This document shows, in pieces, positions 3,025 to 64,000 of a DNA stretch of 64,000 nucleotides (position 1 is the first letter of the stretch; every line of letters starts with the position of its first letter). A model generated the notes under the pieces. That model saw nothing but the letters and a program-made list of their open reading frames with translations. It was not told the DNA's origin and did no database searches. Source of the DNA: a virus (lineage: Duplodnaviria; Caudoviricetes); the IMG/VR virus record IMGVR_UViG_3300046615_000208, positions 32,001 to 96,000 of that record, one strand, 5' to 3'. The translations under genes and the position numbers were made by a program.

Positions 3025-3031
3025 TAACTTA

Positions 3032-3062: not shown

Positions 3063-3086
3063 GCTCCAACGAAAAAGAAAGAGACA

Positions 3087-7380: not shown

Positions 7381-7394
7381 GGAAAAGGAAAACA

Positions 7395-8558: not shown

Positions 8559-8691
8559 AGTAACCATACACACAACCAAGAAAAGGCAATAATGAAGAAA
8601 ATTTACGACACAATCTTCCTCGCTGGCGTACACATCCACATCCTTCTTGACCGAGTTCTCGTGGCCATCGAACACAGGTTTGGGGGTAAGA

Positions 8692-9087: not shown

Positions 9088-9090
9088 CCT

Positions 9091-9384: not shown

Positions 9385-9445
9385 CCCAAGTTGTGATATC
9401 ATTGTTGTAGAAACACCCAACCACTAAAAGAAATACCAAGGTAAT

Positions 9446-9823: not shown

Positions 9824-9890
9824 CCTCTCCCTAAACCCAAATGACGAATGACAAAGAAAAATTACAGATCACTATGATAAAAGGTAAAGA

Positions 9891-33192: not shown

Positions 33193-33507
33193 TTGACAGA
33201 CTGGACGTACGTTCCGGAGTACTGGGACATCGGGACGGTGGAGGAACGTATCCACCGTCTTCGGCGTATTGTCCTGCTGCACTCTGTACTCTACTACAGC
33301 ATGGGTGAGACTCTAGTCCCTGATGCACAGTTTGACAAGTGGGCGTATGAACTTGTGGAGTTACAAAAAACGCATCCTGAAGCTTCGGGACGTGTCTACT
33401 ACCACAGGGACGCGTTCGCTGACTTTACGGGAGAGACAGGCTTTGACCTACCCCTGACAGATGCAGGAGCGATCAGGGCGGCAGAGAGGATGAAGCTTTA
33501 CACATAG
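33193..33507 (+). CDS. Stand-alone NAD-dependent DNA ligase domain Ia-like protein
   Basis: HSVLYYSMGETLVPDAQFDKWAYELVELQKTHPE matches LigA N-terminal H..YY....ISDAEYD....EL..LE..HPE; no adenylation domain. Confidence 0.72.
   Translation: MTDWTYVPEYWDIGTVEERIHRLRRIVLLHSVLYYSMGETLVPDAQFDKWAYELVELQKTHPEASGRVYYHRDAFADFTGETGFDLPLTDAGAIRAAERMKLYT
33360..33375 (+). repeat. Isolated intragenic copy of the GTTACA motif
   Basis: GTTACAAAAAACGCAT, identical to array copies. Confidence 0.65.
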
Positions 33508-46843: not shown

Positions 46844-48721
46844 TCCCATTTGGAAGGAAGAGGATGAAGAGAAACACTATTTCAATGTTGCTGGCAATAC
46901 TGCTGGTTATCCCTATCGCACCAGTACTGTATGCACTTCTGGGTGGCGGATTGGTGGGAAGCGTGGCGTGTCTCCTGCTGGGTGTAGTGACTGCCGCATG
47001 CATGATCAGAGCAGTCAACGGGACGGTAGAGGTCTATAACTGGATCAAGCACCGTAACGTACACATAGAAGAGCCTAAGCCTATGCCTGTACCCCAGCAC
47101 ACTGCCTATGAGATCGACTGGACAAAGATCACCAAGGATGATAGACTGTAGTCATGGAAACAGTAGACAAGAGGACCGAAGAGCAGGAAGGCTTTCTTCA
47201 CCTTCAGGAACCGACCAAGTTCGTTGTGGATGACCGCGTGAGCATGTTCGTACAGGATGGGGAGGTTACCTTCATCGACCACGAGACGGGTGATTCCGTC
47301 ACCATGTCCGAATGGAACTTCTCGGAGGTTGACCTCGCCTATCTTTATGTTAGGCTTGAGGAAAAGAATCCAACGCTCAAGGCCAACCGTCTTGAGCGCG
47401 AGGCGTACGAAGCAGAACAGGAGCAGAACAATGATTAGTGCATCGCGCAAGTATGAACTGGAAATGATCGCGGACAATGAGATTCGGTACCGAGGATTCA
47501 ACTCCGGTGAGGCGTACCTCAAGAAGACCTACGCCATCTACGACCTGACGGACGGAGAGGCGCAGGCTGTCAGCTTCCTCATCCGGAACGCAGTCATTGA
47601 TTTCCCGCCATTCCCCCAGCACTTGGTCTGACAACCGCCCACAAGAAAGGTATTACATTTAATGGCAGAACACCTATTGACAGAAAAAGAAGTAACGGGA
47701 TTCCAGACGGGTGACTACGTAGAGTCCTACTACAACGGCTCACGGTACACAGGTGTGTTGGGTGAGATCAACACCCAATGGATGTTCGCACAGTTGCGTA
47801 TGTCTCCGGGAGTTGATATGATCCTCCCGCTGAGTACGATGGCCGTCATCCCGGAAGAGGAATTTGATGAACTGGACGGATAGCGAGAAGAAGCATGCCG
47901 ATGAGGTAGCATGGGACATGGACCTCATGGAACGGGCACGTAAGCTTGTGGACATGGACGATACGGCTTACGACACGCAGACCGTGTTGGAGACAGTGCA
48001 CGAGACTTATCAGGGTGGCATTGTCCAGTTCCACTTGCAGAACCGGTTCTAATGCGTTACCTTGTAAAGAGCAGGATCGTAATAGTAGACCCGTTCGAGG
48101 ACACGCCGGTTATTGCATCAGCCCACCGGTTCAAGTTCTCAGCCCTAGCACAGTCTAGGATGATGAACAAGCTCAACAAAGAGTTCATTATCCAGTGGTA
48201 CGTACTTGACACAAAGACTATGAAGAAGTATGTTTAAGTAACAAGCCAACGCAAAGGAAAGGGACATCATGTTCGTAGCAGGAGACGTAGTAAAGAACAA
48301 GCTCAACAGCAAGCTCGCCACCGTCACTGACGTACTGAAGGGTGACATGATCCGGGTCCGGTTCGATGGGGACACTGGCACGGTCGAACTCCACGCGTCC
48401 CGGTTCCAAGCACATACGGGTCCGAACTTCGAACAGCCGTTCGAACACGTTGATCCCGAGACCTTCAAGAAGGGTGACTACATTCAGGTCACAGACGGCA
48501 ATGGGGTGACCGTCAAGGGTGCCGCTCTTACCGAACTGAACACGTCCGGGTATGCGACCTTCGACCTGCTGACCGATGACGGACGGTACCTTGACTTCAA
48601 CAACAACTACGTCAACGTCAACGTCTTGTTCCGTGCAGACATCGCACGCGGTCAGATGCCTGCGTACTGAGGTTACAAAAAGCGCATATGGTATCATGGT
48701 ATAAGCCTACTAAGGAGAACC

Positions 48722-49390
48722 ATGGTACGACACCGCGCAAACCTACGAGACCGAGTAAGGACATGGTGGGACAAGAAGCCTGTGTCCCCTGTAGTTCTTC
48801 CGATTGTAGGAGGGGTATTGTCAGTCCTGTTGTTGATAGGGCTGGCATTAACCATTCCTCCGATCATCCACGACATCATCACGCCCAAGGTACCGGAGAA
48901 GACTACCCAACAGACGACGCCCACACCGGAGCAGAGTCTTCCGCCTGTGTTGCAGGTGCCTACTACACAGCCAAGCCCTAAGGCCACACAGGAACCTGTA
49001 CCTGTTCAGGCACCACAACCGGTAGCACCGGGGCCTCAGAACATTCCAGAGCCTGTAGCTCCACAGCCAGTGCCCGTACAGCCGGTGCAACCCTTCCAGC
49101 CGCAACCTGTACCGCAGAAACCACAGCCGGTACCTGTACAACCACCGCAGGTACCACAGGTGCCACACCTACCACCGCTACCGCCTCTGTTGCCAGTACC
49201 ACAGCCACTGCCGTTGCCATTACCATTGCCAAGTCTTCCAGAGGTCCTAGAGCCTGTTGTACCACCTATCCTAGGTCCGGTATTGGAGAAGCCACTGGAC
49301 ACACTAGATAAGGCTGTGGGAGGCACGCTGGACACAGTTGATAAGACAGTGGACGGTGTCACCGGAATCGTCGGAGGATTACTTCCATAG
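48722..49390 (+). CDS. Membrane-anchored Pro/Gln-rich protein
   Basis: Single N-terminal TM, long PQPVP low-complexity stalk, C-terminal LD...GG repeats. Confidence 0.7.
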   Translation: MVRHRANLRDRVRTWWDKKPVSPVVLPIVGGVLSVLLLIGLALTIPPIIHDIITPKVPEKTTQQTTPTPEQSLPPVLQVPTTQPSPKATQEPVPVQAPQPVAPGPQNIPEPVAPQPVPVQPVQPFQPQPVPQKPQPVPVQPPQVPQVPHLPPLPPLLPVPQPLPLPLPLPSLPEVLEPVVPPILGPVLEKPLDTLDKAVGGTLDTVDKTVDGVTGIVGGLLP

Positions 49391-49452
49391 TTACAAGAAA
49401 CGCTTAGAGGCATCAGCTTGCGTAGCTGGTGCCTCTTTGCTATTCTAGAGGC

Positions 49453-49986
49453 ATGAGAACGAAATGCGTACTTTGTAACTGTCGGATCAAAGACCGCCAC
49501 GCGGAACGTAAGACCTGCTCTACCGAATGCCGAAGCTCGTACAAGTGGAAGATGCGGACCATGGCTAAACACCACGACCGAAGCACTTCCGGTCAGCGCC
49601 CCAGCTTCAAGCCCGAAGACTGGACAAGCATCCTGAACAGGCATGGCAGGCGTTGTGCGTACTGCGGTACCAAGAAGGGGAAGATGACAATGGACCATGT
49701 CCTACCGCTCTCACGTGGCGGACGACACTGTGTCTCCAACGTCGTCCCTGCTTGCGGCCAGTGCAACAAGACCAAGGCTGACATGACCCTCATGGAGTGG
49801 AAGCGGAAGAACCTGTACGATCTGCGTCCGTGGACCATGACCACCAACGGGATCAAGATGAAGCGAGCCAAGTCTGGTAAGCTGAACTCCACTCCGCTCT
49901 TCGAGCAGATGCTGAGGGAGATGGCTGACAGGGCGCTTCTGGAGAAGTACCCGCTGACAGTTGACTACACTGACATACTGGTGTAA
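49453..49986 (+). CDS. HNH endonuclease
   Basis: CAYCG...MTMDHVLPLSRGG...SNVVPACGQCNKTK; N-terminal CxxC...CSTEC; leaderless ATG 49453 after TTGCGT/17 bp/TATTCT. Confidence 0.85.
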   Translation: MRTKCVLCNCRIKDRHAERKTCSTECRSSYKWKMRTMAKHHDRSTSGQRPSFKPEDWTSILNRHGRRCAYCGTKKGKMTMDHVLPLSRGGRHCVSNVVPACGQCNKTKADMTLMEWKRKNLYDLRPWTMTTNGIKMKRAKSGKLNSTPLFEQMLREMADRALLEKYPLTVDYTDILV

Positions 49987-51036
49987 GCTGGAGGTAAGAC
50001 TAGAGAAAGGACAACTTATGTTCGGGCGCAACAAGGGTAGGGGTTCCTATCCTGACCCGCCACAGGAGGCACCACGCCAGCGTATGCGGGCCTCATTCGG
50101 TGGCAGTAGGGGAGAGGATGTAATCTCCCGTAGGCTGGACCGACAGGACCCGGTACCGACTCCAGAAGAAAAGTCTGCGGCACTGGAAGCAATCATCAAC
50201 GCTGTACGTACAGCACAGGAACTGGGAGCATCACCGCACGAGGTTGACTCCGCTGTTCGTGGGTTCAACGTAGCAGTTACAAGAAACGCACAGGAAGGAT
50301 ATAACAATGGCGGACTACTACCCGAAGAGCCGTACGGATCACATCGCCAAGGCGATGAAGCTGGACCCCATCAAGGAGGAAATGGCTTCTAAGATTTACG
50401 CCGAACGGTACTCCGACTGCTTCTGCCGAGAGGATCACGACATCAATCCGCCGTGCGGGTCTGTGGTGTGGGCACGAAAAAAGGTGGATGAAATCTTGGC
50501 AATCGCAGAGAAAGCTGGTATGCTGAAGTCATGAAACAGCGAGTAGTAATCCAAGACCTGCACAGTGCCACCATGCCAGTGATCACAGAAATGATCGTGT
50601 CTGACGTCCAAGCCATAACAGGAGACCTGATCCGGTTCGAGCATGATAATGGTAGCGTTACCATCATCAACATCGCTTCGGGCTGGAATGTCTCCATCTC
50701 CGAATATGATGAAGACTGATATGAAGATCATGCGGAGCAACTACGACAAGGCGCACCGTTGTCCCGGATGGGCAGGCCCAGCCCTCAAGGGCATCGAGCC
50801 GTCCATCTGCGCCAGTGGGTCCTTTGCCAAAGAGTTCCACATCCAGCAGTACTGGTATAACAAGGACCCGTACTGGCGCTTCCATAAGTGCCGCACGTGT
50901 GGTACGGTTGTACTCCCCAGCAACTTCCGTAAGTTCGATCCGGTGTGGTGGAAGTTCGCCGCTCAACGGAAGTGGGACAACTGGAAGTACGAACGAGAAC
51001 TTGACAAACGGAACAAGAACAACCTAGAATAGGAAC

Positions 51037-51423
51037 ATGATGAAGAAACTTATTATTGCAGGCGTTATCGCCATTGCCGCTTTCTCGCTGACCGGCTGTC
51101 AGAACCTCGTCCAGAACGAACCGGTTGTGTGTACGGTGGTGGACAAGGACCGATCAACCGAATCCTCGAAGAACGGTTCCAAGTCCGTCTTCCGTATCTA
51201 CACCGAGAACTGTGGTGAGGACAACGAGACGCTGGGTCTTGCCGACAACATCTTGCAGGGCAACTTGCGCTCGTCGGACATGTACGCCAAGATCAAGGTA
51301 GGCGAGACCTACCGGTTCGAGACCGTAGGTATCCGTAACGGAGCCTTCTCATCCTTCCGCGAGATCGTACGGTTCACCAAGGTGTCGGCACCAGTGCCGG
51401 GAATGACGGAGCCTGCCAAGTGA
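51037..51423 (+). CDS. Lipoprotein
   Basis: MKK-hydrophobic-LTGC lipobox. Confidence 0.75.
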   Translation: MMKKLIIAGVIAIAAFSLTGCQNLVQNEPVVCTVVDKDRSTESSKNGSKSVFRIYTENCGEDNETLGLADNILQGNLRSSDMYAKIKVGETYRFETVGIRNGAFSSFREIVRFTKVSAPVPGMTEPAK

Positions 51424-51644
51424 CCAAGCTCCAGAAGATCATCAGCCTTACGGCGGCGTTCGTCCTCATGGTAGGCTTGAGTGCCTGTGCCACTGACGGG
51501 ACAGTATACAACGCGGACAAGACGTACGAGTTTACAATGACCATGAATGATGGTACGGTTGTACCATGCATCAAGCACGAGGACTTCTACGGGTTCGCTT
51601 GCAACTTCGACAAGGCAGTCCGGTCCAACACACCGAAGCCATGA
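51420..51644 (+). CDS. Small lipoprotein
   Basis: Signal peptide with LSAC lipobox. Confidence 0.65.
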   Translation: MTKLQKIISLTAAFVLMVGLSACATDGTVYNADKTYEFTMTMNDGTVVPCIKHEDFYGFACNFDKAVRSNTPKP

Positions 51645-54342
51645 CCGAAGACGGGACTTTCGAAAAGGGAGACCGTGTCAAGATCAACGCTCCGAAGGAG
51701 ACCTGCCACGGACGGACTGGCGTAGTTGACAACTACACCGAGTCTGGTAAGCTCATCTACGTAACCACTCAGACCGGCAGGGTCTGGGTGTATCCGTGGG
51801 AGATAGCCCTACACAAGGAGAGGTAGCAATGTACAAAGAAGGCGACAAGGTCCGCATCATTGCCAAGGATGATTCCGAGTACGGCAGGGTATGTCCTGTT
51901 CACGGTATGTCCGGAGACCACACCGTGTGGGTCAACGTAGGGTTCGGTATGGCTTGGCGCTACCGACCCGATGAAGTAGAAGCAGTAACCGACAACCAAG
52001 AAGGAGAATAGACAATGGCACGATTCAATGGTAAGCAGTACAAGGGTGCGCAGAAGGCACTCAAGGAAATCCGCCGAGAAGAGGCAGAGAAGCGTGACGC
52101 GCAGACCCTGCCCGAGAACCGCCGTCAGGCGCGTCTTACAAAAGACGCATAGCTCGACCTCATGCGGCTACCGTGTTGACAGCAGCACGGTGGCCGTATA
52201 AGCTTTAGCTACAAGATCAAATCAAACCGAAAGGGAAGATCATGAAGTTTGCAGTCGGAGACAAGGTAACCATCAAATCCGCGAGCAAGACGTGGAGCGG
52301 GGTACGTGCCGTGGTTAAGGAGCATGATTCCGAAGAGAAGATGTACCCGTACACGCTGACCCTGATCGATGATACCAGTACCGGATCGTACAAGAGCGGC
52401 GATACCGCCGAGGCATTCCGAGAGGATGAACTGGTGGCGATGGCTGACGTGGTTGCGGCAGACATCGAGAAGGCCAAGCAACTGCTCCAGAAGCACGGTA
52501 TCCCCTTCCGCATCTACTCTCGCGAGGACGTGGACAAGATGCTGAACGTGTACGAACAGGACCCGAACGATCCACTGGATACCCGTACGTTCCGCAGTGA
52601 GATCGCCGCCTTCATCATGGAGGGGCAGGACTGGAAGAATCTCTCTGACAAGGGGCAGGACGACGAGGCCGCTATCTGGGACATGGTAGAGGGTGCACGT
52701 AACGATCACCCGGAATGGTTCGTGAACTGATGGCACGGATGAGTTTCACGGTTGAGGCCGTGGGTGAGAAAGTACGACTAAAGCAGGAGGACGGTACCTA
52801 CACGGACTTCTCCCCTGCTCCTGCCAACCAGATGGCAGGAGGTTTAATTAAGGCGGCGATGGAAGCAAACGGGCAGATACCCCCGAAGGCACTTACGATC
52901 ACGTTTCACTTCGAATAGTTACAAGAAACGCATTTGACACCCCCGACCGAGGAAGGTAGGCTGTAGGTATGAAGACAGACGGAACACCAGAGACCGAGTT
53001 CGAAGAGGCCATGCCGCTGCTCGCCGCTATCGTAGGGCAGAACGCACGTGACCTCCAGTGGACTAACGACCAACTGCTGGCAAGCAAGGAGCGACAGCTT
53101 CGCCAGATGCAACAGGACTACGTGAAGCTGTACGCGTCCATGCAGAAGGTGGCAGAACGTACCGACTCCGCCACTGCCTACAGCGCACTGGACAGGTTCT
53201 GGCACGTGAACGAAGATGCCAAGAAAGAACTTGCCAAACCGGATGATGTGTACTAGACTGGTATTACACCAAGCGAAAGGAAAAGAACATGTGGCAAGAT
53301 AAGCTTAAGTTCAGCGTCGGAGACACCGTCAAGATCGTCCGGGACAACAAGGTCTGGAACGGATCGGTGGCAAAGATCGCGGCAATCACCAACGACGCAC
53401 GGTACCCCTACCTGCTTCACTTCATTTCCTCATCGCGGCCCAACACCGTGGGCGAGAAGTTTGAGTGGGACGAGGAATCGCTCGACCGCCATGACATGAA
53501 CCAGCGTGTCAAGCTGGAGCGGATCATTGCGGAGAAGTTCTCCCATCCGGTAGATGTGTTCTACTCACCGACTACCGGCTGTGCGGTAGTCATGGCACCG
53601 AACGGATACCTGTTCCGTATCCTTGCCGATGGGACCATCGACAAGTGATGTGTAATGAATGCAAGTTAGACAACGGCTGGCACCACGTAGAGTGTAGTCA
53701 AAAGGTATCCATACTCTGGACCACTACACTCACCAAATAAATAGAACCGACCCGAAGGGCCATCCACTTGACAGTGAGTGGCCCTTTGTGTATGCTAGAG
53801 ATATGAAGAAAGCATGGCAGTACCGTAAAGGTGTAGTCCTCATTAAGGGAGACACCGACCCGCTGTTGTCCGCTACGCTGACCAAGGTGGGCTGGAACAA
53901 GTGGCGGCATCACTACTACAGGCAGACCGACCCCAACCTAGACGGCTGGGAGATACGGACTGACAAGCATGTTCAGACACTAATTGACAACAGAGCAGTG
54001 GAGAGGGTAGTGTAGAGATATGAAGAAGCCAAGCAGATACCGTGTCGGATCAGTGTTCATCTACAACGCAGGTCACCCGATGTTCGAAGCCACTTTGTCC
54101 AAGGTAGGACCGGACCACTGGATGAAGGTCAACCACAAGAGCAAGGTCCGCCAGTACTACAGTAACAAAACGGTAGAGGACCTGTTCGCTACCAAGCTGT
54201 TGACTCTGATTCATGACTCTGGTAAGGTGGAGCGGTAGGTTGACAAGGGTGCGGTAAGTGTGTATATTATCTACTTCCAAGGTTTACGGTATAATAGAGG
54301 TAGAAGCACAATCCTCTAGATACTAAAGCACTAGGAACTAAG

Positions 54343-54942
54343 ATGTCAGAAAATCCCTTCCTGTCACCCCCACCGCCCCCTCCGTTCAACCCCGAGGACA
54401 CTACCGTTGTGTCCCGAAGTGCCGGAAAGAACTCTGCCGCAGAGCAGGGCCAGAACATCCCAATGGGATGGAAACCGACAGCCGCAGAACCCGTTGCCGT
54501 AATTCGTTGCACCGGTACCGCCAGCACTACGGGTGAGCAGTGCAAGCGTTGGAGCCTACGTGGCACCAACGTCTGCACTAAGCACGGTGGACAGCTACCG
54601 TCAGTCCGTGAGCACGCCGAGGCGGTGGTGGAATCAGCCCGCATGAGGTTGATGGGAATGGCTGACGATGCCGTAGACGGACTGGAAGACCTCATTGCTA
54701 TCGGCACTGCGCCACAGATTCGGCTTGCCGCTATCAAGGAAGTTCTGGACCGCTCAGGCGTGAAGGGTGGACCCGACCTATCCGTTGAGGTCACGCACTC
54801 CGTATCATACAAAGACGAAATCTTCAACCGCCTCAAGGAAATCAAAGAGCGCAAGGAAGCCATGGAGAAAGAGAAGGCTGCAATCCTTGGAGAAGATATT
54901 GTTGATGCCGAGGTAGTTGACGAAGCCGAAGAAACCGAGTAA
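54343..54942 (+). CDS. Probable terminase small subunit (HGG-type Zn finger)
   Basis: RCTG..STTGEQCKR...GTNVCTKHGG, then helical RLAAIKEVLDRSG, C-terminal DIVDAEVV. Confidence 0.6.
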   Translation: MSENPFLSPPPPPPFNPEDTTVVSRSAGKNSAAEQGQNIPMGWKPTAAEPVAVIRCTGTASTTGEQCKRWSLRGTNVCTKHGGQLPSVREHAEAVVESARMRLMGMADDAVDGLEDLIAIGTAPQIRLAAIKEVLDRSGVKGGPDLSVEVTHSVSYKDEIFNRLKEIKERKEAMEKEKAAILGEDIVDAEVVDEAEETE

Positions 54943-55330
54943 GCTGTAGCCATGGAAGATAATGTAGAGGATGGGACCGAGGGCGGCTACACCGCTTCTG
55001 CGGAAATCCCACCAGAAGAGCTAGAGAAGATGCGGCGAATGCGCCCGCAGTTTTTCACCGACAACATTGACGAGCAATACGACGAGGCCATGGAACTCTT
55101 CGGAGGCAAACCGATCCCCAAGATCGGAGAGCCTGCCGAGTACATCATCACCGACCGAAACATGGTGCCGTCCCTCTCCGAGGCCTACCGTAAGGCCCTC
55201 ATCGAGAAGTACGGGCACATCCCCGAACTGAACGAAATGGTTGCGGTGGACGAGGAACCCGACGACTAGTTACAAGAAACGCACAGCGGCTCCACTTGAC
55301 GGTGGGGCCGTTTGCATGTAAGCTGTAACC

Positions 55331-55957
55331 ATGAACACATTCAAAGAAGGCGACCGTGTCTCCCACCCGAACTACGGAGAGGGTACCGTTACCAGTCCTT
55401 ACCCCGGAACCGGATGGCCTACCGTTCGGTTCGACACCGATGGATTGATCTCGACCGATGCTTCCCTGCTGACACCGGTACGGGCAACTCCTGCCCCACT
55501 TTTCAAGACAGGCGACCGCGTCATTCATCCGCTCCATGGTCCCGCTGGTGTTCTCGGATACGATGCGGCCCGTAAGCTGGTGGAGATCGTGCCGAACACG
55601 TACGGTGGGAACTCCACTCACGTCCATCCGTCCAGCTTGACACTGGCCGAACCGCCCACTAAGTTCAAGGTAGGAGACCGAGTCTCCCACCGCATCCACC
55701 GTGACGGTACCGTGGAAGACATACAGGCCAACGGGTTGCATGTCGTGAACATCGGCGGTAACCGTGTCTACATGGCACTGGAACACCAGATCAGCCATGC
55801 GGTACCGGAACCGACCTACCACATCTGCATCGAAGAGATTACCGGTGCCGCTCATGTTCCCGGTAGCCTTACCGCAAAAGAAGTTGCCAACTACATCGAG
55901 CATGCGCTAGACTGGCGGGTAGCTAAGGAAATCACGATCACCAAGGAAGGAAACTAA
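55331..55957 (+). CDS. Triple Tudor-like (CarD-RID/PcrA-CTD-like) repeat protein
   Basis: FKEGDRVSHPNYGEGTV, FKTGDRVIHPLHGPAGV, FKVGDRVSHRIHRDGTV. Confidence 0.6.
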   Translation: MNTFKEGDRVSHPNYGEGTVTSPYPGTGWPTVRFDTDGLISTDASLLTPVRATPAPLFKTGDRVIHPLHGPAGVLGYDAARKLVEIVPNTYGGNSTHVHPSSLTLAEPPTKFKVGDRVSHRIHRDGTVEDIQANGLHVVNIGGNRVYMALEHQISHAVPEPTYHICIEEITGAAHVPGSLTAKEVANYIEHALDWRVAKEITITKEGN

Positions 55958-57595
55958 TGACCGTCTTCCACAACCCTCCGAAGCCCGGAGACGAGGTCAC
56001 CCTGCTGGCCTACGTCAACACCGCCATCAACGACTTCGAACTCTCTCCCGGTGATACCGCTACCGTGTCCCGTATCGACGGGGACGAAATCTACCTTGAC
56101 GTGGTCTACACCTCAGCACACGCCAACTCACCCTATGCCGGTGAACATGAGGACTGGTTCACGGTCCCGTTTGACGAGGCCGACGAATACTTCGCAGGCA
56201 TCATCCGGATCGAAGAGTAGAGTTACAAAAAACGCATAGAAAGGAACAGCATGGAAAATGAATTTGGAGAGAACCCGTCCTTCTACATCTGGCCCGAGGG
56301 CCACGAGGAAGGCACCGCCTATCCGGAGGACTTCGATGAGCGGCTAGCCCGAGCGCTCGCGACTGAAGGTCTGGACTACGAACGGGTCTAGTTACAAAAA
56401 ACGCATAGCGGTCACGGTTTACATCGTGGCCGCTTTTGTGTATATTAGAGGCATGGAGACATTCAAAGTAGGAGACAGAGTTATCTTCCGTCCGTCACAG
56501 GGCGAGGCGCTAGACGCTACCGTGACAGATGTATTCGGTACCGCCGAAGCGTTCGGCGGATCATACGGAATCAATCTGGACGAACCGTGGGCGGTCATTG
56601 GTGGCGAGACCGAGACAGCCGCTCACGGTATGGAACTTACAAAAAACGCATAGTTGACTTAACCGACCCGAGAGGCTAGACTCAAACCATGGACATCAAG
56701 ACAACCGCAGTATGGATCAATCCCGACGACGAGTTCACCGATGAGATGGGCCACCGCCACAAGGCGCTACGGATCGACCGTGTCGAACGGACGGACGGGT
56801 ACTACGTCTACGTGGAAGGTCAGGGCTACCCTGAATTCTACCTGCGCACGCATGCGGTCACCATCCACGTCCCCGATACCAAGTTCCAACCGGGTGACTG
56901 GGTCACCGCCCGATCCGGTAAGGGTGACGTGTACCAGATCAGCCGTGCCTTCAAGGATCGTTGGGGGAAGACCTACTACGTGTTCGACAACGGATCGGTG
57001 GATATCCGCAAGCGGAACCGCTCCGGTTGGCACGAGGCAGAACGGGCCAACAAAGGTTACAAAAAACTCTTAGACTCGTAAGTTGCATTCCACCGACCGA
57101 GAGGGTAAGCTAGAACCATGACACATTACCTAGACCCTACGGGTGCCGTGTACTGCGGTGCGGTACTGGGACCGGATGACACCCCGGACACCATTGATTC
57201 TCCGCTTCCCGCTCACGAGGTCTGCCGCGAGTGCGACCGTCTAGCCTCCGCTTAGTTACAAAAACCGCTTAGGAAGGAGCAACATGAGTAAGAAACGGGC
57301 ACCGTTCAGTCTGGACCTGAACCTGAAGCTAGCAACCGTCAACCGGGATACGGATACGTCTATGTCCATTGACTTCTGGGACCGCAACGATGAGCAGGTG
57401 GCTGTGATCAATTCCAGCCCCGCCCAGCTTCAGGCGTTCGCTCTTCGCATCCTCCAGCAGGTCCAGTACAACCTAGAGGACCGGGAGAAGTAGTTACAAA
57501 AAACTCTTAGACCGATAGGGTTGACAAATTTAATACGGGTGCCGTAGTGTTGTCCTCATCAACCGAAAGGATAGCACTACCGAAAGGACCCCGAA

Positions 57596-57976
57596 ATGTC
57601 AACTCCACTCCCTCCCCAGTACGCACCGTTCCAGTCCCAGCCTCAGCCTCCCGCACCGAAGAAGCGGTTCAACTGGAAGCTGGCGCTGGCCATCTTCGCC
57701 GCCGTCCTCATTGGCGGGGTCATCGGGTCCGTGTCCAATCCCGCACCGCCCCCGGTGGTGCAGGTACAGGAGAAGGAAGTGGAGGTGGAGAAGGAAGTCA
57801 CCCCGGCCTCCTGTCTTGAGGCTCTGGACCTCAACGAGGAAGCTTTCAGCTACCTGTCCGACTCATTGAGTTCCACCGCAGATCAGAATTACACCGCCGC
57901 ACGCCGATCAACCGACAAGGTGGTGGCACTGGTACCCAAGGTCAACGCCGCAAAGGCCGCTTGCCGAGCCAAGTAG
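57596..57976 (+). CDS. Single-TM membrane protein with paired Cys
   Basis: Pro-rich N-terminus, KKR + TM segment, TPASC...AAC. Confidence 0.65.
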   Translation: MSTPLPPQYAPFQSQPQPPAPKKRFNWKLALAIFAAVLIGGVIGSVSNPAPPPVVQVQEKEVEVEKEVTPASCLEALDLNEEAFSYLSDSLSSTADQNYTAARRSTDKVVALVPKVNAAKAACRAK

Positions 57977-58686
57977 TTACAAGAAACGCTTAGCTCTCCT
58001 GACTTGCACCGACCGCACCGATGCGGTAAGCTGTAATCACAAGCCAAACGGAAAGGTTCACATCATGTCAAACACCACACCGCAGGAACTGAACGAAGCC
58101 TACGAGGCAATCACCGCATCCGACAACCGTGCCAACGTTGGCCGTTCAGACGCGATCTACCACGTCGGGAAGCTCATGACCGGAGATTGGGCACCGGAGT
58201 TCGTGTCCGACCTTCAGGCCGGGATCGCGGACACCGCCGACTACGACTACGATGCACGGTACCACTACGGCTACCTGACCGCGTGGAACACCGTCGCCGG
58301 TCTGCTCAAGGGCGAACCGCTCAAGACCATTGCCAAGAACCACGGCTAGGGGAAACCGATGCTTATTTCCAAGGAACTCGAAGGGGCCACCGTAGAGCGT
58401 ATCTACTGGGCCGTACCGCCCAACACATGGATTCCTACCATCGGTGAGAAGTTCGACAGCTTCCGGGAGGCAGGAGACCACGCGCTCAAGATGGTCGATG
58501 GAGGCCGTGACGCCCTTATCATCAATCGTGTGGTCTTTCGGAAGCCGAACGGTACCACCGTTGACATGGAAGTCGGACGGGAACGACGGTTCGCGTAGTT
58601 ACAAAAACCGCTTAGCTCACAGGACTTGCAGCCGAACCGCTGATGCGGTAAGCTGGTAACACAAGCCAACCAGAAGGAGAAACAAA

Positions 58687-59004
58687 ATGGCAAATCTCAA
58701 GTTCACCCCCCAGTCCCACGAAGAAGCTGCTAAGGTCCTGTCGTTCCGGGACTCGCTGATCATCGGCCACAACACCGAACTCCGCCGTCTAGGGGATGGT
58801 TCCATCGTTGCCACGTACCACGGCAACAGCATCGTACGGTACACCACTGAAGGTGTGTTCGCCACGTACGCAGGATGGGCCACCTCCACCACCACGAACC
58901 GCCTGAACCAGCTTGCACCGGCACGGTTCAACATCAAGAACCGGGAGCCGCAGATCAACGGTAAGACGCTGGAAGACTGGTCCGAATGGGTCAAGGTCAG
59001 CTAG
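58687..59004 (+). CDS. Hypothetical protein (cassette cargo)
   Basis: AAGGAG RBS; TAG stop fused to motif copy 59004. Confidence 0.75.
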   Translation: MANLKFTPQSHEEAAKVLSFRDSLIIGHNTELRRLGDGSIVATYHGNSIVRYTTEGVFATYAGWATSTTTNRLNQLAPARFNIKNREPQINGKTLEDWSEWVKVS

Positions 59005-60953
59005 TTACAAAAAACGCTTACCGTATCCGTTTGCTTCCCGCTTACGGATGCGGTAAGCTTGTTTTATCAGCCCAACCGATCCGAAAGGCACACAATGCAA
59101 ACCGACACACCGTCACCGTTCACCGTAGTAGGTGCCGCCGTATACGATGCGGCTACGGATACATTGGAGGAACCGAACCGATGGGAGTCAGCCGGTAAGC
59201 TTCCCGCCGACCGTGCCCTCCACGTCACGCACGAGTACCGGGACACGCTGTGAACCAGAAACAGCGGGACGAGTTCTGGAAGGATGCGGCAGAGTATACC
59301 GGAGCGATACCGTACTACCGTTTCCACGACGAGTGGTATTACCTTGTCACCGATAGCGGATACACGCCGGTAGACGAGTACACGCTACGGGAGGCGCTGG
59401 ACCTGTTCCACGACGTTACGGACGGCGAGAACTGCGCCGTCTACCTCTACCGTGGCGGTGACCATCTGGCCACCTACAACGGCGGACAGTCCGATCCGGA
59501 GGGTGAAACCACCTACCACGTTACAAAAAGCGCATTGCCGGAATGGCTTGCGGCGCTGGCCGGAAGAGTGTAGGCTGTAGGTATGAGGATAGGAAAAGCC
59601 ATCCTGAAGGAACGGATCGAAACCAAGATCGAAGAGTACCGTGAGTCTAGGGTACAGAACTATGATCCCTATCTGGATGGCATCATGGACGGTCTGGAAT
59701 TGGCTCTCGATATTCTCGAAGAGTCCTGACTACTGAGAGGTAACACCATGTTCAAGAAAAGCAAGATCACCATCTGGACTGACGGACGGTTCGCACGCAC
59801 GGAGTTGGGCGAGTTGGAAAGCGTGGAGGACGTACAGTCCGACATGACGCATGACCGCCAGTCGCATGCCATGTACCCGTCTACTCTCGCCATCGAAGAG
59901 ACCGCTACCACTCTCGTTGTGGTCAAGGAGTCCGGGACGGTTCACGTCTACAACTGGTCCAAGGACTAGTTACAAAACACGCTTAGCATCCATCTTGCAT
60001 CTGGTGCGGATGGGTGCTAAGCTTGTGTTAACAGCCAATCGAAAGGGCATCCAATGATCCGTCCAGTCGCACCGTCCGTTCCCGCAGACTCCACCAAGCC
60101 GGAAGACATCAAGGCATGGGACGACTACTACGCCGCTTGCGAAACCTATGCGGACATGTTGAAGCCTTGCATGGATCGTAGTTGGGATGGCGGCTGGTAG
60201 TTACAAAAAGCGCATCACCGCTAGGTTTGACAGCCTAGCGGTGATGCCGTAAGCTTTAGTTATCAGCCAAACCAACCGGGAGGAAAAGAAATGATGCAGT
60301 TCTCGAAAACCACCATCCAATCCGCAGCCGATGACGTAGCACGATCCGCAGACATTGAACTGGTGTTCAACCAGTCCGACCTTTTCGTGATCGCGGATAG
60401 CTCGGAAGCGATCAACGAGTTTGAGACGCGTCTCGCGGCTCACACGGTAGTCTGGGAGGGTCCGACCGCCTTGGACGCCGCAGGCATGTTGCGGACGCTT
60501 ACGGACTTGCAGGGCGAGCGTGCCGAGTTCCGTCCCCGCCACACCGAGGGGTGGCAAGCCCGATACAACATCGTGGCCCGGTAGTTACAAAAGACGCATA
60601 GCGGATCGCCTTGACAGGTGGTCCGCTGTGCCATAGACTGGAGTCACCAACAAGCCAAGGAGGCCACAATGTCTTTCCCGTTCACAGCAACCGCCGTAAC
60701 AACCGTCATCATGGGTGACAACATACCCGCCCACGACGAGACGCTAGACCTTGCCGAGACCATCGGCCAAAAGCTGGACGAGTTCCGCGAGTACATCACC
60801 AGCGTACGGGACGCGGAACAGGCCCACGATGCGGTAAAGGAACTCCTAGCGGCTCTGCTGGAAGAGGCCAGCAAGTAGTTACAAAACACGCATAGCGGTC
60901 CCAGTTGACACTGGGGCCGCAGGTGTGTATACTGGTAGTAGATGGTAAGCCAT

Positions 60954-61026
60954 TGATATCGGCCCTGTAGCGGGGTCGGGGGGAAGGCCCACCCTAAACG
61001 CGTTTCGGCCCATTATTTTTGGGGTC
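60954..61026 (+). ncRNA. Structured non-coding element, copy A
   Basis: Downstream of TTGACA 60905/TATACT 60928, no plausible ORF; homologous to 63269-63327(-). Confidence 0.5.
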
Positions 61027-61215
61027 TCCCGGTGACCCTGCCCCGCTCCTTTGCGGCTCCGCTTCATACCTTGATTCTTTCACATTTTTGCGCCGGATGC
61101 AAGTCCGGAGCGTTACAAGAAACGCATTGTGATTTGGGTTTGCATGTGGCGTACGTATGCCGTAGAGTATTCATATCGGGTTCATCCGGAACCCCTCAAG
61201 CCTTGGAGGTCTCCC

Positions 61216-61845
61216 GTGGGCGCACCCCGTATCGGTAACGTTCTGAACGTTCCCACTAAGCGTGTTTATGCCGCTAACCCTAACTCGGCCCGTATCGTGG
61301 ACGTATGGCGGCAGGCTACCGTCTCTGAGCTTGTGGAGGGTATGGAATGGTACAAAGACGCGCACGCGCTCGCCGTCCGTCTCTCCCCTGCTGATCCGGC
61401 GCAGGCCGCTGGCGTTATCGCCGCGCTGTCTCCCATGATGGCATGGGGACAGAATGTCAATCTCGCCGTACGTGCCTATGCGGACGGTAAAGCATCCGGT
61501 GCGCTCTTTAGCAACGTTGCTAAAGCCAACCGTATCCTGTCCGGTGAGCGTCCGGAGGACGTACTGGGCGGCGATAAAGTACGCGCATTCTATGGCGTGA
61601 TCGCTAACCCTACGTCGGATGCGGTTGTCGTTGACCGGCACGCGTTTGACATCGCTGTAGGCCGCGTGACTAACAATGAGACGCGGCAGGCACTGGGCCG
61701 TAAGGGTGTCTATGAATCATTCGCTAGCGCCTATGTGCGGGCAGCTAAGACCATTGCACGTGAGACTGGCATGGATGTATCCGCCAGTCAGGTGCAGGCC
61801 GTTACGTGGACGGTATGGCGCAGGCTCAAGGGACTGGCCGAGTAG
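61216..61845 (+). CDS. Phage protein with HhH-GPD/EndoIII-like motif
   Basis: GGAGG RBS + GTG 61216; EWY, IAALSP..W..N, GDKVRAF, VVVDRH, QVQAVTW. Confidence 0.5.
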   Translation: MGAPRIGNVLNVPTKRVYAANPNSARIVDVWRQATVSELVEGMEWYKDAHALAVRLSPADPAQAAGVIAALSPMMAWGQNVNLAVRAYADGKASGALFSNVAKANRILSGERPEDVLGGDKVRAFYGVIANPTSDAVVVDRHAFDIAVGRVTNNETRQALGRKGVYESFASAYVRAAKTIARETGMDVSASQVQAVTWTVWRRLKGLAE

Positions 61846-61940
61846 TTACAAGAAACGCATAGGCGGCAGGACTAGACACCCTGCCGCTTATGCCATAGAC
61901 TTTATTCATCGGAACAATCCGAATCACTTAGGAGGCCACC

Positions 61941-62300
61941 ATGGCAAGCATCGCAGAAACTCTTCTCACTCGCACGGCACGCGACGGCGGCGTGACTGTC
62001 TCACTCGTTAGCGGCGACGTTGCCGCCCACACATCGGGCTTCTACGTCGGCGGACGCGTCACTGAGACGCTGGTGACGGACCCCTCAGACATCGGTGACT
62101 ACCTGTCTGCCGTCTCCACCATTACGCGGCGTGCTGGCGGCGTAGGCTACATCGGCGCATGGAAGAACCACGAAACGGGTATGGTGCACGTGGATGCATC
62201 GGATCACGTGGAAGACTTCGGTTCCGCCGTACGGATCGCGCAGGAGCGCGGCGAACTGGCGATTTGGGAGATCGCTGGCGGGACCGAATTCCGGCTCTAG
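61941..62300 (+). CDS. Hypothetical protein (cassette cargo)
   Basis: AGGAGG RBS; TAG stop fused to motif copy 62300. Confidence 0.75.
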   Translation: MASIAETLLTRTARDGGVTVSLVSGDVAAHTSGFYVGGRVTETLVTDPSDIGDYLSAVSTITRRAGGVGYIGAWKNHETGMVHVDASDHVEDFGSAVRIAQERGELAIWEIAGGTEFRL

Positions 62301-63224
62301 TTACAAGAAACGCATAGCGGGTTGGCTTGCGGACGGTAAGCCAACCTGCTAATCTTGAACCATAAGCAAGGCCCAACAAACCAAAAGGGAGTTACAAAAT
62401 GCGCGTTGTAAAAGAAACTGCACTCATTGGGGAAGCCATGTTTTTTCTGGCCGCTCGCTCCAAGGCTGTCGGCGGCGTTACGGCAGGCGTGGAGTCTGCC
62501 AGTAACGACAAGGTACCGGCCAAATTCCACGGCGAGTACGTGGTGACGGGCAACGGCGGACGTTGGGAGTGTACCAACCTTGTTCGGGCCGTGGTGACGC
62601 TTAGGAGCGTCCGGAATGCCGAGAACCTGTGGCAGATCAAGGACGGCAAGCGGACGCGTCTGGCGTACAGCTAGCGGTTACAAAAAACGCATACGGGCAG
62701 GACTAGACACCCTGCCCGTATGCGGGTAAGCTTGGACCATACCAACCGAAAGGAACACAATGAAAGACTTTTCTGAGCTTATGGTTGCAGTTCTTGCCAT
62801 ATTCCCCGAAGCTACGGTGGAACAGGATCGATACGGGCAGATAGTGATCCACACTAACCTTACCGAAGACGGTAAGGGTGGTTTCGCACCGTTTCAGGTA
62901 CTGGAAGAGTACGGCGACTAACTACAAAAAACGCTTAGGGATAGGACTTGCATCTAGCGGTCCCATCCCCTAGAATTGAAGTATCAGCCAAACAACGGGA
63001 GAGGAACCCAAAATGGATTGGATCACTGTAACACCGGCTTACGGACGCGACTACAAGAACCAGAAGGACGCGGCGGCAGACTGGAACGCCAATCTCGATT
63101 TCCGCGAAACATCCACCGGCCAGTACACAAACAAGGCCGACTGCCAGCGGATGGGAAAGAAGGTCATCATCCGCTACGGGAAGCTCATGAAGACCATGCA
63201 GGCCCCAATGAAGTAGCCGACTTA

Positions 63225-63260
63225 CAAAAGACGCTTAGCCGAAAGGCTAAGCGTCTTTTG
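63225..63260. terminator. Bidirectional terminator built from two head-to-head motif copies
   Basis: CAAAAGACGCTTAGCC-GAAA-GGCTAAGCGTCTTTTG, perfect 16-bp stem. Confidence 0.8.
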
Positions 63261-63268
63261 CGTGTTGC

Positions 63269-63327
63269 GGCCTAAAAAATAAGGCCAGACTCGGCCTTCC
63301 CCGCCACCCGTCTCAGGGCGGCTATCA
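63269..63327 (-). ncRNA. Structured non-coding element (or 18-aa mini-ORF), copy B
   Basis: Downstream of minus-strand TTGCAT (63379-63374)/17 bp/TAAGCT (63356-63351); homologous to 60954-61026. Confidence 0.5.
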
Positions 63328-63624
63328 TGTGGGCCTTCCGGCTTAATACAAGCTTAGCACCTATCGGATGCGGATGCAAGCCTACAAAAAACGCATTGGG
63401 TGTTGCGGATGCGCTCGCATGCGTGTACGCTTAGGGTATGGCAACCCAACTAGACATGGTACAGCGTATGTTCGCTAATGGCGGCGTGACCTGTCCCATC
63501 AGTGGCGACAGGATCGCTACGGCTAAGTCTGACCCTCCCAAGCTGTCAGAGATAGTTGACTGGGAAGCGGATTCATACTACCGTGGAGTAGGGCAACCCA
63601 AAGAGACAGTTAGGAGCTAGGACA

Positions 63625-63909
63625 ATGGCAAACTACACGCGGACCCAGTTTACTCGACTCGGAGACTTCGGAGTCTCGGAGGAATGGCGTACGGAGACAC
63701 AGCCCAGCGCCACGCTGGCGTACGTGGATCACTACAACGGCGCTATCAGTACCGCGCAGGTTTTCGACCCCGCTACGGGTCACACGCGGACGTACCCGTT
63801 CCGTTCCAAGGATCGGGCAATGGCCATTGTGGAGCGTCACCTAGAACGCAATGGTTACAAAAAATGCGTAGAGTTCCGCGACTTGACAGGCAATGTCTCG
63901 GAGTACTAA
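63625..63909 (+). CDS. Hypothetical protein whose C-terminus reads through motif and next promoter
   Basis: GYKKCVEFRDLTGNVSEY* spans motif 63854 and TTGACA 63883. Confidence 0.7.
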   Translation: MANYTRTQFTRLGDFGVSEEWRTETQPSATLAYVDHYNGAISTAQVFDPATGHTRTYPFRSKDRAMAIVERHLERNGYKKCVEFRDLTGNVSEY

Positions 63910-64000
63910 GCTCTAAGTGACAACCACCTAGGAGGCGGACCATGGCACGCAAACCACGCGCTAGCGAAGTAGCTACAAGAAACGCATTCTTGGATTATTT

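Follow-up and report, generated by a model that had tools for sequence, protein, structure and literature searches.

What are the short repeated motifs that punctuate the small genes of this phage, and do they serve the expression of those genes, their exchange, or both? The window analyzed here is a 64,000-nt stretch of a 171.7-kb genome (99% complete). The phage is a large soil actinobacterial siphophage, apparently lytic, that is related to Arthrobacter phages Racecar and Atuin; we call it G000 and a close uncultured relative G001. A first-pass annotation had described about 29 co-oriented motifs between 48672 and 63987 that separate single small genes, and had proposed a phage regulon that might also serve for modular gene capture.

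Searching for the 17-nt box GTTACAARAAACGCWTAG with up to 3 mismatches, we found 31 matches in the window, 30 of them on the + strand, whereas dinucleotide shuffles averaged 0.13 and never exceeded 2. The interval 48672-63989 holds 29 + strand copies, as originally counted, the last of them cut by the window end. The box contains about 27 bits of information, with invariant positions TACAA, C, G, C and T. The 16 reported overlaps with stop codons all coincide with ORF ends in the ORF list. When the search was extended to the whole genome, as the annotation had advised, it recovered 58 copies in a single 27-kb array at genome 80.6-107.5 kb (window 48.7 kb to 11.5 kb past the window end). Thus, the earlier limits hold inside the window, but the whole array is longer and flips to the - strand at approximately 102.7 kb of the genome, with box orientation tracking gene strand. 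Two outlier copies, 33360 (+) and 44882 (-), lie outside the array in a context with neither promoter nor hairpin. The array comprises approximately 55 tiny genes, one per standardized expression unit, and its dense part starts at window 55270. Its features in the window are listed below, with promoters written as -35, spacer length and -10.

48673..64000 (+): window portion of the cassette array, from box matches and promoter and hairpin calls
48673..48689 (+): box copy from the motif search with 2 mismatches and no called promoter; followed by ORF 48722-49390
49388..49446 (+): TAG, box 49391-49407, hairpin (ΔG -27.7), TTGCGT-17-TATTCT; leaderless start 49453, HNH endonuclease ORF to 49986
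50277..50293 (+): box only, no hairpin or promoter; RBS and ATG 50307 directly 3'
52136..52204 (+): box-terminal TAG ends ORF 52015-52152; hairpin (ΔG -27.5) 13 nt downstream, TTGACA-17-TAAGCT; ORF 52242-52730
52916..52968 (+): TAG, box 52919-52935; -35 TTGACA overlaps box end, 17 nt, TAGGCT, 6 nt, leaderless ATG 52969 (sequence reading)
55267..55324 (+): TAG, box, hairpin (ΔG -24.1), TTGACG-17-TAAGCT; leaderless ATG 55331, 208-aa CarD/TRCF-RID-type repeat protein
56223..56239 (+): box only, directly 5' of RBS, ORF 56251-56391; box-only copy at the matching G001 place
56389..56446 (+): TAG, box, hairpin (ΔG -24.7), then TTTTGTGT, TTTACA-17-TATATT; leaderless ATG 56453
56637..56682 (+): box-terminal TAG stops ORF 56426-56653; hairpin-less unit, -35 TTGACT abutting the box; leaderless ATG 56689
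57057..57111 (+): CTC-variant box without hairpin; 9 nt to TTGCAT-17-TAAGCT; leaderless ATG 57118
57253..57272 (+): TAG, box-only copy, then RBS GAAGGAG and ATG 57284
57491..57550 (+): TAG, CTC-variant box without a strong hairpin; TTGACA-18-TAGTGT; ORF 57596-57976
57974..58032 (+): TAG, box, TTGCAC-17-TAAGCT; two-gene unit, ORFs 58065-58349 and 58359-58598
58596..58654 (+): TAG, box, TTGCAG-17-TAAGCT; ORF 58687-59004
59002..59059 (+): TAG, box, hairpin (ΔG -30.7), TTGCTT-17-TAAGCT; exact site of two extra G001 units
59521..59576 (+): box within end of ORF 59250-59573; TTGCGG-17-TAGGCT; leaderless ATG 59583
59967..60023 (+): TAG, box, hairpin (ΔG -29.2), TTGCAT-17-TAAGCT; ORF 60054-60200
60198..60255 (+): TAG, box, hairpin (ΔG -30.1), TTGACA-17-TAAGCT; ORF 60291-60584
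60582..60639 (+): TAG, box, hairpin (ΔG -30.8), TTGACA-17-TAGACT; ORF 60669-60878
60876..61112 (+): TAG, box, hairpin (ΔG -28.5), TTGACA-17-TATACT; ORF-less unit, approximately 180 nt without a convincing ORF
61113..61168 (+): box without hairpin, TTTGCA-18-TAGAGT; DUF7178 gene, ending at 61845
61843..61901 (+): TAG, box, hairpin (ΔG -26.8), TAGACA-17-TAGACT; ORF 61941-62300
62298..62355 (+): TAG, box, hairpin (ΔG -29.0), TTGCGG-17-TAATCT; ORF 62399-62674
62678..62732 (+): box, hairpin (ΔG -31; CGCATAC pairs GTATGCG), TAGACA-17-TAAGCT; ORF 62760-62921
62919..62976 (+): TAA, box, hairpin (ΔG -18), TTGCAT-17-TAGAAT; ORF 63013-63216
63222..63381 (+): perfect terminator (GAAA loop, T-run) with the box as its 5' arm, then approximately 120 nt ORF-less; 90% identity in G001
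63382..63431 (+): box, TTGCGG-17-TACGCT at 4 nt; leaderless ATG 63438
63855..63912 (+): box within end of ORF 63625-63909, then TTGACA-18-TAAGCT
63973..63989 (+): TAG, box copy with 3 mismatches; unit cut by window end
ORF ends overlapping a box (+): TAG at 49390, 52918, 55269, 56391, 57255, 57493, 57976, 58598, 59004, 59969, 60200, 60584, 60878, 61845, 62300; TAA at 62921

The joints have a composite structure in which the upstream stop codon, usually TAG, is followed by a 10-nt A-rich, unstructured spacer, TTACAAAAAA, and then by a hairpin of 14-18 bp. Its 5' arm begins with the 3' half of the box (CGCWTAG), its loop contains the -35 element of the following sigma-A promoter, and its 3' arm is that promoter's 17-nt spacer, running up to the -10 (TANNNT). 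Therefore, the 17-nt motif is a stop-proximal spacer plus the base of a hairpin, not a free-standing operator. Thirty-two copies fold at ΔG -18 to -34; z lies mostly at -4 to -10, in a few cases near -2.5 to -3.5. Base pairing joins the box 3' half to the bases immediately 5' of the -10, and the partners covary within genomes and between lineages (CGCATAC/GTATGCG, CGCATAT/ATATGCG, GAATAG/CTATTC, GCATAG/CTATGC). Between orthologous hairpins of G000 and G001, which are non-independent samples, ΔG is kept despite 10 double and 32 single changes that preserve pairing, and despite replacement of whole stems.

The pairing is strongly strand-biased. Internal G-T pairs account for 178 of 1355 on the gene strand versus 16 of 932 on the opposite strand, and the sense fold is more stable than the antisense fold in 93 of 100 hairpins. 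Wobble pairs are thus eight times commoner on the gene strand, which shows that selection acts on the hairpin in the sense transcript. Only seven of the 32 strong hairpins have at least five T within 10 nt of their 3' side in the sense direction, which makes them leaky intrinsic terminators at most; the 63222 copy is a perfect terminator stem in its own right. In compact hairpins the box keeps its place at the hairpin base and the -35 shifts 19-23 nt away. Hairpin geometry accounts for the distance from box to -35.

A -35/17/-10 promoter accompanies 45-46 of the 58 box copies, mostly 8-11 nt 3' of the box. The distance from -10 to start codon is bimodal: either exactly 6 nt (leaderless) or 23-47 nt with an RBS leader. 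The 6-nt class includes 8 of 45 cases in G000, 7 of 47 in G001 and 3 of 25 in Racecar, and about one unit in five is leaderless. This spacing is an actinobacterial leaderless signature, which argues that the -10s are real. As first proposed, the genes would be independently transcribed, in single-gene units with their own predicted sigma-70/sigma-A-type promoters. The proposed order of motif, optional hairpin, promoter, leader, ORF and next motif describes approximately 22 of 28 window copies but not three box-only copies, and the leader is missing from the leaderless fifth. Box-free sigma-A-type promoters are also present nearby.

The same joint architecture fills the direct terminal repeats of the cultured phages Racecar and Atuin (20,468 bp and 17,312 bp), where the boxes are the variants TAGTTACAAAA[C/A]TTGAATAG and TAACAAAAAYTTCGGTAG. 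It is thus common to three lineages, each with its own box and its own -10 hexamer (TAAGCT, TAGTCT, TAGACT). By synteny, the array probably occupies the terminal-repeat position in this metagenomic genome as well.

Alignment with relatives, also advised at first pass, showed that gene order is not conserved and that indels are bounded by box or promoter, although break points do not fall exactly at the motif throughout. Only 62% of the dense arm is alignable with G001, compared to 96% of the replication block. Alignment gaps extend from +14 to +86 3' of one box to -1 to -8 5' of the next, and one G000 box (the 59002..59059 joint) is where G001 carries two additional units. Racecar gene 18, with box and promoter repeats on both sides, is absent from Mimi and Talia1610. 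Approximately 12 cargo ORFs are common to the array and Racecar, in scrambled order and with one on the other arm, and each bears the local box type. These whole-unit gains and losses bear out the idea of modular cargo in part. However, a box-free small-gene region is also plastic (73% alignable with G001), and at least one unit deletion was joined at a CATGGA microhomology of start codons rather than at a box, so box-mediated recombination is not the sole route. Breaks at the box are also partly expected from alignment, because unrelated genes share the repeated joint. Unit turnover is highest within the array but not exclusive to it.

In approximately 14 hairpin-less copies the box still lies 9-10 nt from the -35, and three or four copies across the array lack both hairpin and promoter; those in the window (50277, 56223 and 57256) have an RBS directly 3', and box-only copies sit 12-14 nt 5' of start codons. 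For this reason, the box may carry a function of its own. It could be a DNA site, at about -62 to -46 of the early promoters, for a sequence-specific protein such as a phage-encoded repressor that shuts off early genes, or an activator, in the manner of stoperators or phi29 p4, or else a strong UP-like element for the alpha subunit. The information content and invariant positions of the box fit such a site, as do the consensus kept in box-only copies (one at the same G001 place), boxes that are uniform per genome yet lineage-specific, consistent with a co-evolving factor, and the encoded WhiB and HTH proteins. Distal UP subsites lie where the A-run of the array lies. Against this, pairing with a covarying partner accounts for the lineage-specific 3' half, the box follows the hairpin when the -35 moves, and no candidate binder was found. 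The -10, which is read by a host sigma factor, is equally lineage-specific, pointing to homogenization by recombination rather than factor co-evolution. We regard a protein site as possible but doubtful, and it may coexist with a role for the hairpin. The stand-alone, stoperator-like site suggested initially is not needed, since the 3' half of the box belongs to a sense-strand RNA hairpin, whose covarying base it forms. The A-run, 5' of 31 of 32 hairpins, would also be a canonical U-tract on the other strand, where the element reads as a hairpin followed by TTTTTTGTAA and where a terminator scan calls such sites. An antisense terminator is nonetheless very unlikely: wobble pairs and fold stability favor the sense strand, and the A-run is kept in hairpin-less and box-only copies.

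An integron-like capture system, with box and hairpin as an attC-like folded site for a dedicated recombinase, would explain the strand-specific hairpin with conserved base and variable center, the stop codon fused to the site, and the differing unit content and order of relatives; G-T tolerance is also compatible with a single folded DNA strand. Yet the first-pass report of no integrase beside the array extends to the 99%-complete genome, which has neither tyrosine integrase nor serine recombinase or resolvase, and the annotation of the 150 kb of Racecar examined lists none. Moreover, integron cassettes do not bring a promoter each, as every unit does here, break points spread from box to start codon, and RecA-like, Cas4, RuvC and Mre11 genes would suffice for homology-driven exchange. 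We therefore give this reading little credence. T7-group promoters resemble the box in length, asymmetry and terminal ATAG, raising the idea of promoters for a phage single-subunit RNA polymerase; box-only copies 12-14 nt from starts would suit it, and promoter parts enclosed by hairpins recall cruciform or N4-type promoters or supercoil switches. This is the least probable account. A PF00940 (T7-type RNA polymerase) search gave no match, with its control likewise silent, Racecar has no annotated RNA polymerase, and canonical -35/17/-10 promoters with leaderless spacing account for expression. A cruciform needs pairing on both strands, so the sense/antisense asymmetry opposes it. No sigma factor was found in the phage.

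Among known systems, the comparison with the promoter-early stem-loops (PeSLs) of T4-type phages RB49/phi1, PST/T4 and nt-1/KVP40 (Arbiol et al. 2010, PMC2839356; Comeau et al. 2014, PMC4122927), already drawn at first pass, holds for shared architecture and unit-wise turnover. In both, a repeated composite joint spans stop codon to next start, an AT-rich stretch lies 5' of a sigma-70-type early promoter whose -35 the stem-loop can overlap, joints cluster where the genome is most plastic, between small ORFan genes, and bound indels or replacements between close relatives, and consensus variants are lineage-specific. The array differs in the phage that carries it, an unrelated actinobacterial siphophage that has a long direct terminal repeat, rather than a T4-like myovirus; in a far sharper box (17-20 nt, stop codon included); in a hairpin systematically built from the promoter's two sequence-neutral flanks; in its leaderless class; and in its approximately 55 copies in one contiguous block. 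Promoter activity, terminator activity and mini-circles have been measured for PeSLs (PMC2839356, PMC4122927), whereas the array's promoters and terminators are predicted from sequence.

Many small genes behind strong host-type early promoters in the Racecar/Atuin terminal repeat, some array cargo plausibly targeting host machinery, recall the host-takeover module of Bacillus phage SPO1, the original work on which is reportedly that of Stewart et al. in 1998. That module lies in the terminal redundancy and has approximately 24-26 genes in about a dozen operons (PMC10531801, PMC6873191). A uniform box-hairpin joint is not reported for it, and our array is placed in a terminal repeat by synteny. 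Stoperators of mycobacteriophage L5/Cluster A and Rhodococcus Cluster CA are likewise short and asymmetric, share one orientation with respect to transcription, and lie in the gaps between genes or across gene ends, but they are spread through temperate genomes and bound by the immunity repressor (PMC13313380). The box copies are instead confined to one array and tied to hairpin and promoter, with no integrase or repressor found. Integron attC arrays also consist of co-oriented small single genes between strand-specific folded sites, with conserved ends and variable centers; the phage array has no integrase, gives each unit its own promoter, and does not break at a single nucleotide.

Overall, we consider it likely that the array is a bank of approximately 55 single-gene units with PeSL-like composite joints that combine terminator and early promoter. 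In the upstream gene's transcript, the hairpin would act as a terminator or attenuator or as a 3'-end stabilizer, and host RNA polymerase would read the unit promoters early in infection, perhaps aided by the A-run as an UP-like upstream element. The repeated 60-100 nt joints would offer homology to phage recombination enzymes, allowing units to be deleted, inserted and shuffled, and the same recombination would homogenize the joints of each genome by concerted evolution. That the genes are early, host-takeover genes is suggested by the host-type promoters, by the position of the Racecar and Atuin arrays in the terminal repeat, and by one cargo protein, the 208-aa product with CarD/TRCF RNA-polymerase-interaction-type repeats (start 55331). 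The kind of system is already known; the array would extend the PeSL pattern of T4-type phages to an actinobacterial phage group.

The first-pass annotation had described a recurring motif in one orientation, and the window bears this out. It holds 31 matches to the 18-mer at up to three mismatches, 30 of them on the + strand, whereas dinucleotide shuffles gave a mean of 0.13 and never more than two. Across the whole IMG/VR virus record (171,752 bp, judged 99% complete, with the window at bases 32001-96000), we counted 62 copies at the same threshold. Fifty-eight of them fall in a single stretch of approximately 27 kb, whose + arm spans 80.6-102.3 kb and whose − arm spans 102.9-107.5 kb in genome (whole-record) coordinates. 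The two arms of this array converge, and the motif copies, which we call boxes, run with the gene sense on both; the sole exception is a − copy at genome 97039, inside the + arm.

The information content of the box is sharply limited to positions −3 to +16, TAG-TTACAARAAACGCWTAG, with TACAA, C10, G11, C12 and T14 near-invariant. All 16 overlaps between a stop codon and the motif that the annotation had named coincide with ORF ends in a mechanical ORF list, and over the whole array the stop before the box is TAG in 28 of 57 cases and TAA in one. Outside the array, the stop codons of long ORFs are TAA (41), TAG (22) or TGA (13). Because TAG dominates at boxes and TAA mostly elsewhere, we regard the stop codon as part of the element. 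Some copies consist of the box only, directly before a ribosome-binding site (window 50277, 56223 and 57256 and, past the window end, 64409 on the same scale). A box-like copy with two mismatches also lies outside the array, at window 33360-33377, without a promoter or hairpin behind it; this variant recurs at 20297 in G001, a close uncultured relative. Besides G001, a scan of IMG/VR with the generic pattern TAGTTACAAAANNNNNATAG returned chance single matches only, among the matches listed, and the pattern scan of bacterial genomes likewise gave chance single matches and no box array among those listed. No paper in the literature on these phages describes such an array.

Behind the box, 45-46 of the 58 array copies carry a −35/−10 pair with the elements 16-18 nt apart. 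The −35 is of the TTGACA or TTGCAT type (TTGNNN) and mostly begins 8-11 nt past the box, the −10 is TANNNT, chiefly TAAGCT or TAGACT, and an A-run lies upstream of the −35 at about −58 to −53. Counts of boxes lacking a promoter are slightly high, since the scan misses −35 elements that overlap the box end, such as that of an extra promoter at window 52933 read from the sequence. A loose promoter pattern counted genome-wide was too unspecific for use. The first long-ORF start follows the −10 at a bimodal spacing, either exactly 6 nt or 23-47 nt with a ribosome-binding site. Units of the 6-nt class number 8 out of 45 in our genome, 7 out of 47 in G001 and 3 out of 25 in the cultured Arthrobacter phage Racecar. 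With a 6-nt gap the transcript would start on the ATG itself, and leaderless transcripts are common in Actinobacteria. Because this exact spacing is independent evidence, we take the predicted −10 elements to be functional. In several units of both lineages, despite their differing boxes, we also observed a 5′-leader family with a small stem-loop (ATCGGAACAATCCGAA; genome 100475-100560 and Racecar, L034, 15318-15400), which is possibly a 5′-end stabilizer.

In 32 copies, the joint between genes folds into a hairpin of −18 to −34 kcal/mol, with z mostly between −4 and −10 and a few values nearer −2.5 to −3.5; approximately 14 copies have the promoter and no hairpin. The 5′ arm opens with CGCWTAG of the box, the −35 sits in the loop, and the 3′ arm is the promoter spacer, ending 0-4 nt short of the −10. 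The distance from box to −35 is constant because the 5′ arm, in which 7 box nt are followed by 9-10 variable nt, matches the 17-nt spacer in length. Compact tetraloop terminators that use the box itself as their 5′ arm occur at window 63222 and at genome 102918 and 103391. At window 63222-63381, which is 90% identical in G001, the box and its own complement form a perfect GAAA-loop terminator, followed by approximately 120 nt without an ORF.

To which strand the fold belongs can be read from its wobble pairs. We pooled stem pairs over our genome, G001, Racecar and Atuin, a second cultured Arthrobacter phage, and folded the opposite strand in the same way. Internal G-T oppositions, which are G-U pairs in RNA, make up 178 of the 1355 gene-strand pairs compared with 16 of 932 on the opposite strand, and 123 of 850 compared with 16 of 562 in the variable part of the stem past the box. 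The sense fold is the more stable one in 93 of 100 hairpins. Base composition is not the cause of the bias, because the gene strand is A-rich rather than T-rich. We rejected a cruciform, which would need pairing of both strands and is contradicted by this asymmetry, and also an antisense terminator, which would give the reverse wobble bias. The asymmetry argues that the hairpin is selected in the sense strand; most simply, the folding molecule would be the transcript arriving from the upstream gene.

Between our genome and G001, the folding energy of orthologous hairpins is preserved despite 10 double and 32 single changes that maintain pairing, and in several orthologue pairs (for example 97532 vs 51616) even with the whole stem replaced. 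Only 7 of the 32 hairpins are followed by five or more T within 10 nt of the stem; an A-run precedes the stem in 31 of 32. As sense terminators the hairpins would be imperfect, and from these features we infer leaky terminators or attenuators, or else 3′-end stabilizers.

Neither the array nor a core block had a nucleotide match in the phage collection by megablast, and relatives were found through protein searches and motif scans only. The helicase is 52% identical to its homologues in Talia1610, Racecar, Mimi and Atuin, Arthrobacter globiformis phages of 192-194 kb, and the nearest relatives are Arthrobacter siphophages. They carry genes for a tape-measure protein, WhiB, RecA-like, Cas4, RuvC and Mre11 proteins and approximately 35 tRNAs; no RNA polymerase, sigma factor or integrase is annotated in them, the coverage for Racecar being 150 kb. 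Racecar and Atuin have direct terminal repeats of 20,468 and 17,312 bp, and each repeat holds the same joint architecture, a + arm and then a short − arm that ends within approximately 200 bp of the repeat boundary. Their boxes read TAGTTACAAAA[C/A]TTGAATAG in Racecar and TAACAAAAAYTTCGGTAG in Atuin. All three lineages share the stop, a T(T/A)ACAAAA run, the TAG at the box end and a length of 17 nt. The middle of the box varies by lineage, and the segment that it pairs with changes in step (GAATAG/CTATTC, AATAT/ATATT and GCATAG/CTATGC in Racecar; GGTAC/GTACC in Atuin), and each lineage prefers its own −10 (TAAGCT, TAGTCT or TAGACT).

By synteny with Racecar gene 1, the terminal repeat of our collapsed contig would start near window 54.2 kb, which is also the onset of the dense part of the array; the similarity to the Racecar left end is weak and lies upstream of window 54343. 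Beyond the window, at the outer end of the − arm, four boxes are tightly stacked at genome 107252-107468, three of them with TTGACA promoters. By analogy with Racecar and Atuin, they may adjoin the repeat boundary. Right of the array lies a ParB-like nuclease gene (genome 113914-115419), on the strand opposite to that of its Racecar counterpart, which lies within the left portion of the terminal repeat.

Comparison with G001 shows how the units turn over. This 95-kb sequence, a single IMG/VR contig, has the identical box in 52 copies (up to two mismatches) and is collinear with genome 47-141 kb at approximately 80-87% identity. The alignable share is 96% in the replication block, 91% right of the array, 73% in the box-free small-gene region and 62% in the dense + arm. 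Homology usually ends 14-86 nt past a box start and returns 1-8 nt before the next box, so the exchanged piece is the leader and ORF, with or without the hairpin. Two additional G001 units lie exactly at our single box 91005. Similarly, Racecar gene 18 is bordered by box-plus-promoter repeats and is absent from Mimi and Talia1610, whose joint at this site is a third, mosaic version. The Racecar repeat contains homologues of approximately 12 array ORFs, in scrambled order and one on the opposite arm, and the shared cargo in each genome carries the local box type. This pattern points to shuffling of units combined with concerted evolution of the joints, box and −10 alike. The suggestion that genes are gained and lost at the motif therefore holds for the unit-bounded gaps and gene 18, but not throughout: one G001 deletion fused two units where their start codons share CATGGA microhomology and not at a box, and plasticity extends to the box-free region. 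Apparent breaks at boxes also call for caution, as unrelated genes sharing a repeated joint always align at the joint alone.

Most array products match no family. The exceptions in the window are as follows.

Window 49453-49986: HNH endonuclease, carried as cargo by a unit whose box and leaderless promoter immediately precede it
Window 55331-55957: 208-aa protein with three repeats of CarD/TRCF RNA-polymerase-interaction (tudor) type (E 7e-8)
Window 61216-61845: DUF7178 family match

The three tandem repeats of the 208-aa protein each begin with FKxGDRV, and the next small ORF (window 56453-56653) begins with the same type of repeat; both products are candidate binders of host RNA polymerase. 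The unit at window 60934-61112, 89% identical in G001, has a strong promoter and no convincing ORF. Its RNA has no significant fold (z +0.3), no Rfam match and no tRNA. Rfam at E≤1 gave nothing relevant in window 44-64 kb, and no tRNAs were found. DUF7178 genes also occur in other actinophage contigs. In one of 65% GC, L174 (IMGVR_UViG_3300022891_000006), positions 5400-9900 hold nine copies of a standard cassette of its own, one with the DUF7178 gene. The cassette consists of TTGACAA, 14 nt, GTGCAATGATTGCACC and then ATGACGACGAC, and looks like a leaderless promoter accompanied by a palindromic box and an N-terminus common to the copies. In the contig L173 (IMGVR_UViG_3300049927_000070), two iteron-like repeat fields at 2900-3750 lie near a DUF7178 gene (GATGCGGTGCGGT, approximately five times; GACATACCCTC, approximately 7-9 times, spaced 25-30 nt apart) and may mark an origin or partition site.

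Which known system does the array resemble? PeSLs, the promoter-early stem-loop cassettes of T4-type phages, combine strong sigma-70-like early promoters with AT-rich sequence upstream and a stem-loop, which can overlap the −35. They occupy the interval between a stop codon and the next start codon, are concentrated in hyperplastic regions and flank indels, and their promoter activity, terminator activity and mini-circles have been measured (PMC2839356, PMC4122927). The proposed likeness to PeSLs extends to every sequence-level feature: a sigma-70-type promoter below an AT-rich stretch in 45-46 of 58 array copies, a stable stem-loop in the joint (32 copies, with compensatory changes and the sense G-U bias of 178 to 16), and clustering in a hyperplastic region (62% alignable vs 96% in the core) with unit-bounded gaps and the gene 18 case. 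However, this phage is unrelated to T4. We suggest that the array works like a PeSL system without being its homologue, the likeness being functional rather than by descent.

The stoperator comparison stands in part. Stoperators are also asymmetric sites (13-14 bp) in one orientation to transcription, as are 57 of 58 array boxes, but they are spread over a temperate genome and bound by the immunity repressor, whereas our boxes are confined to 27 kb. As the annotation had noted for the array surroundings, we found no integrase: PF00589 had no match in the genome with all 14 controls positive, and no resolvase was found. An integron has an adjacent tyrosine integrase, IntI, and promoterless cassettes; these units have their own promoters. 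On these defining features we assign the array to neither system. An SPO1-type host-takeover module lies in the direct terminal repeat, a position seen for the arrays of Racecar and Atuin and one that our array may have, judging by the gene 1 synteny. Among products that might shut off or redirect host functions, the one candidate is the protein with CarD/TRCF-RID-type repeats, most cargo being without a family. A T7-type promoter reading of the box was dropped, as PF00940 had no match, a weak result given that the control was also silent. Sigma region 2 was not found in the genome; a WhiB gene is present. We consider it unlikely that the box is the address of a dedicated phage factor, either a regulator or a helper in recombination that works on the sense strand in its folded form, and the terminal repeat an integrase-free platform for gene capture. 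If it were so, any ORF placed behind a box would automatically gain a stop, a terminator and a promoter.

Both PeSLs and the array consist of self-contained units in which the joint would be terminator, promoter and recombination homology at once. The form seen here is unusually clean, with approximately 55 copies, a fixed stop-spacer-hairpin geometry, leaderless and leadered classes, and promoters whose sequence-neutral flanks double as hairpin arms. With Racecar and Atuin both in culture on Arthrobacter globiformis, the model is directly testable. The joints may be usable as they stand as insulated expression parts in Actinobacteria, and the array may serve as a map of likely early anti-host genes. 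On this evidence, a PeSL-style organization of disposable early genes would have arisen independently in actinobacterial phages.
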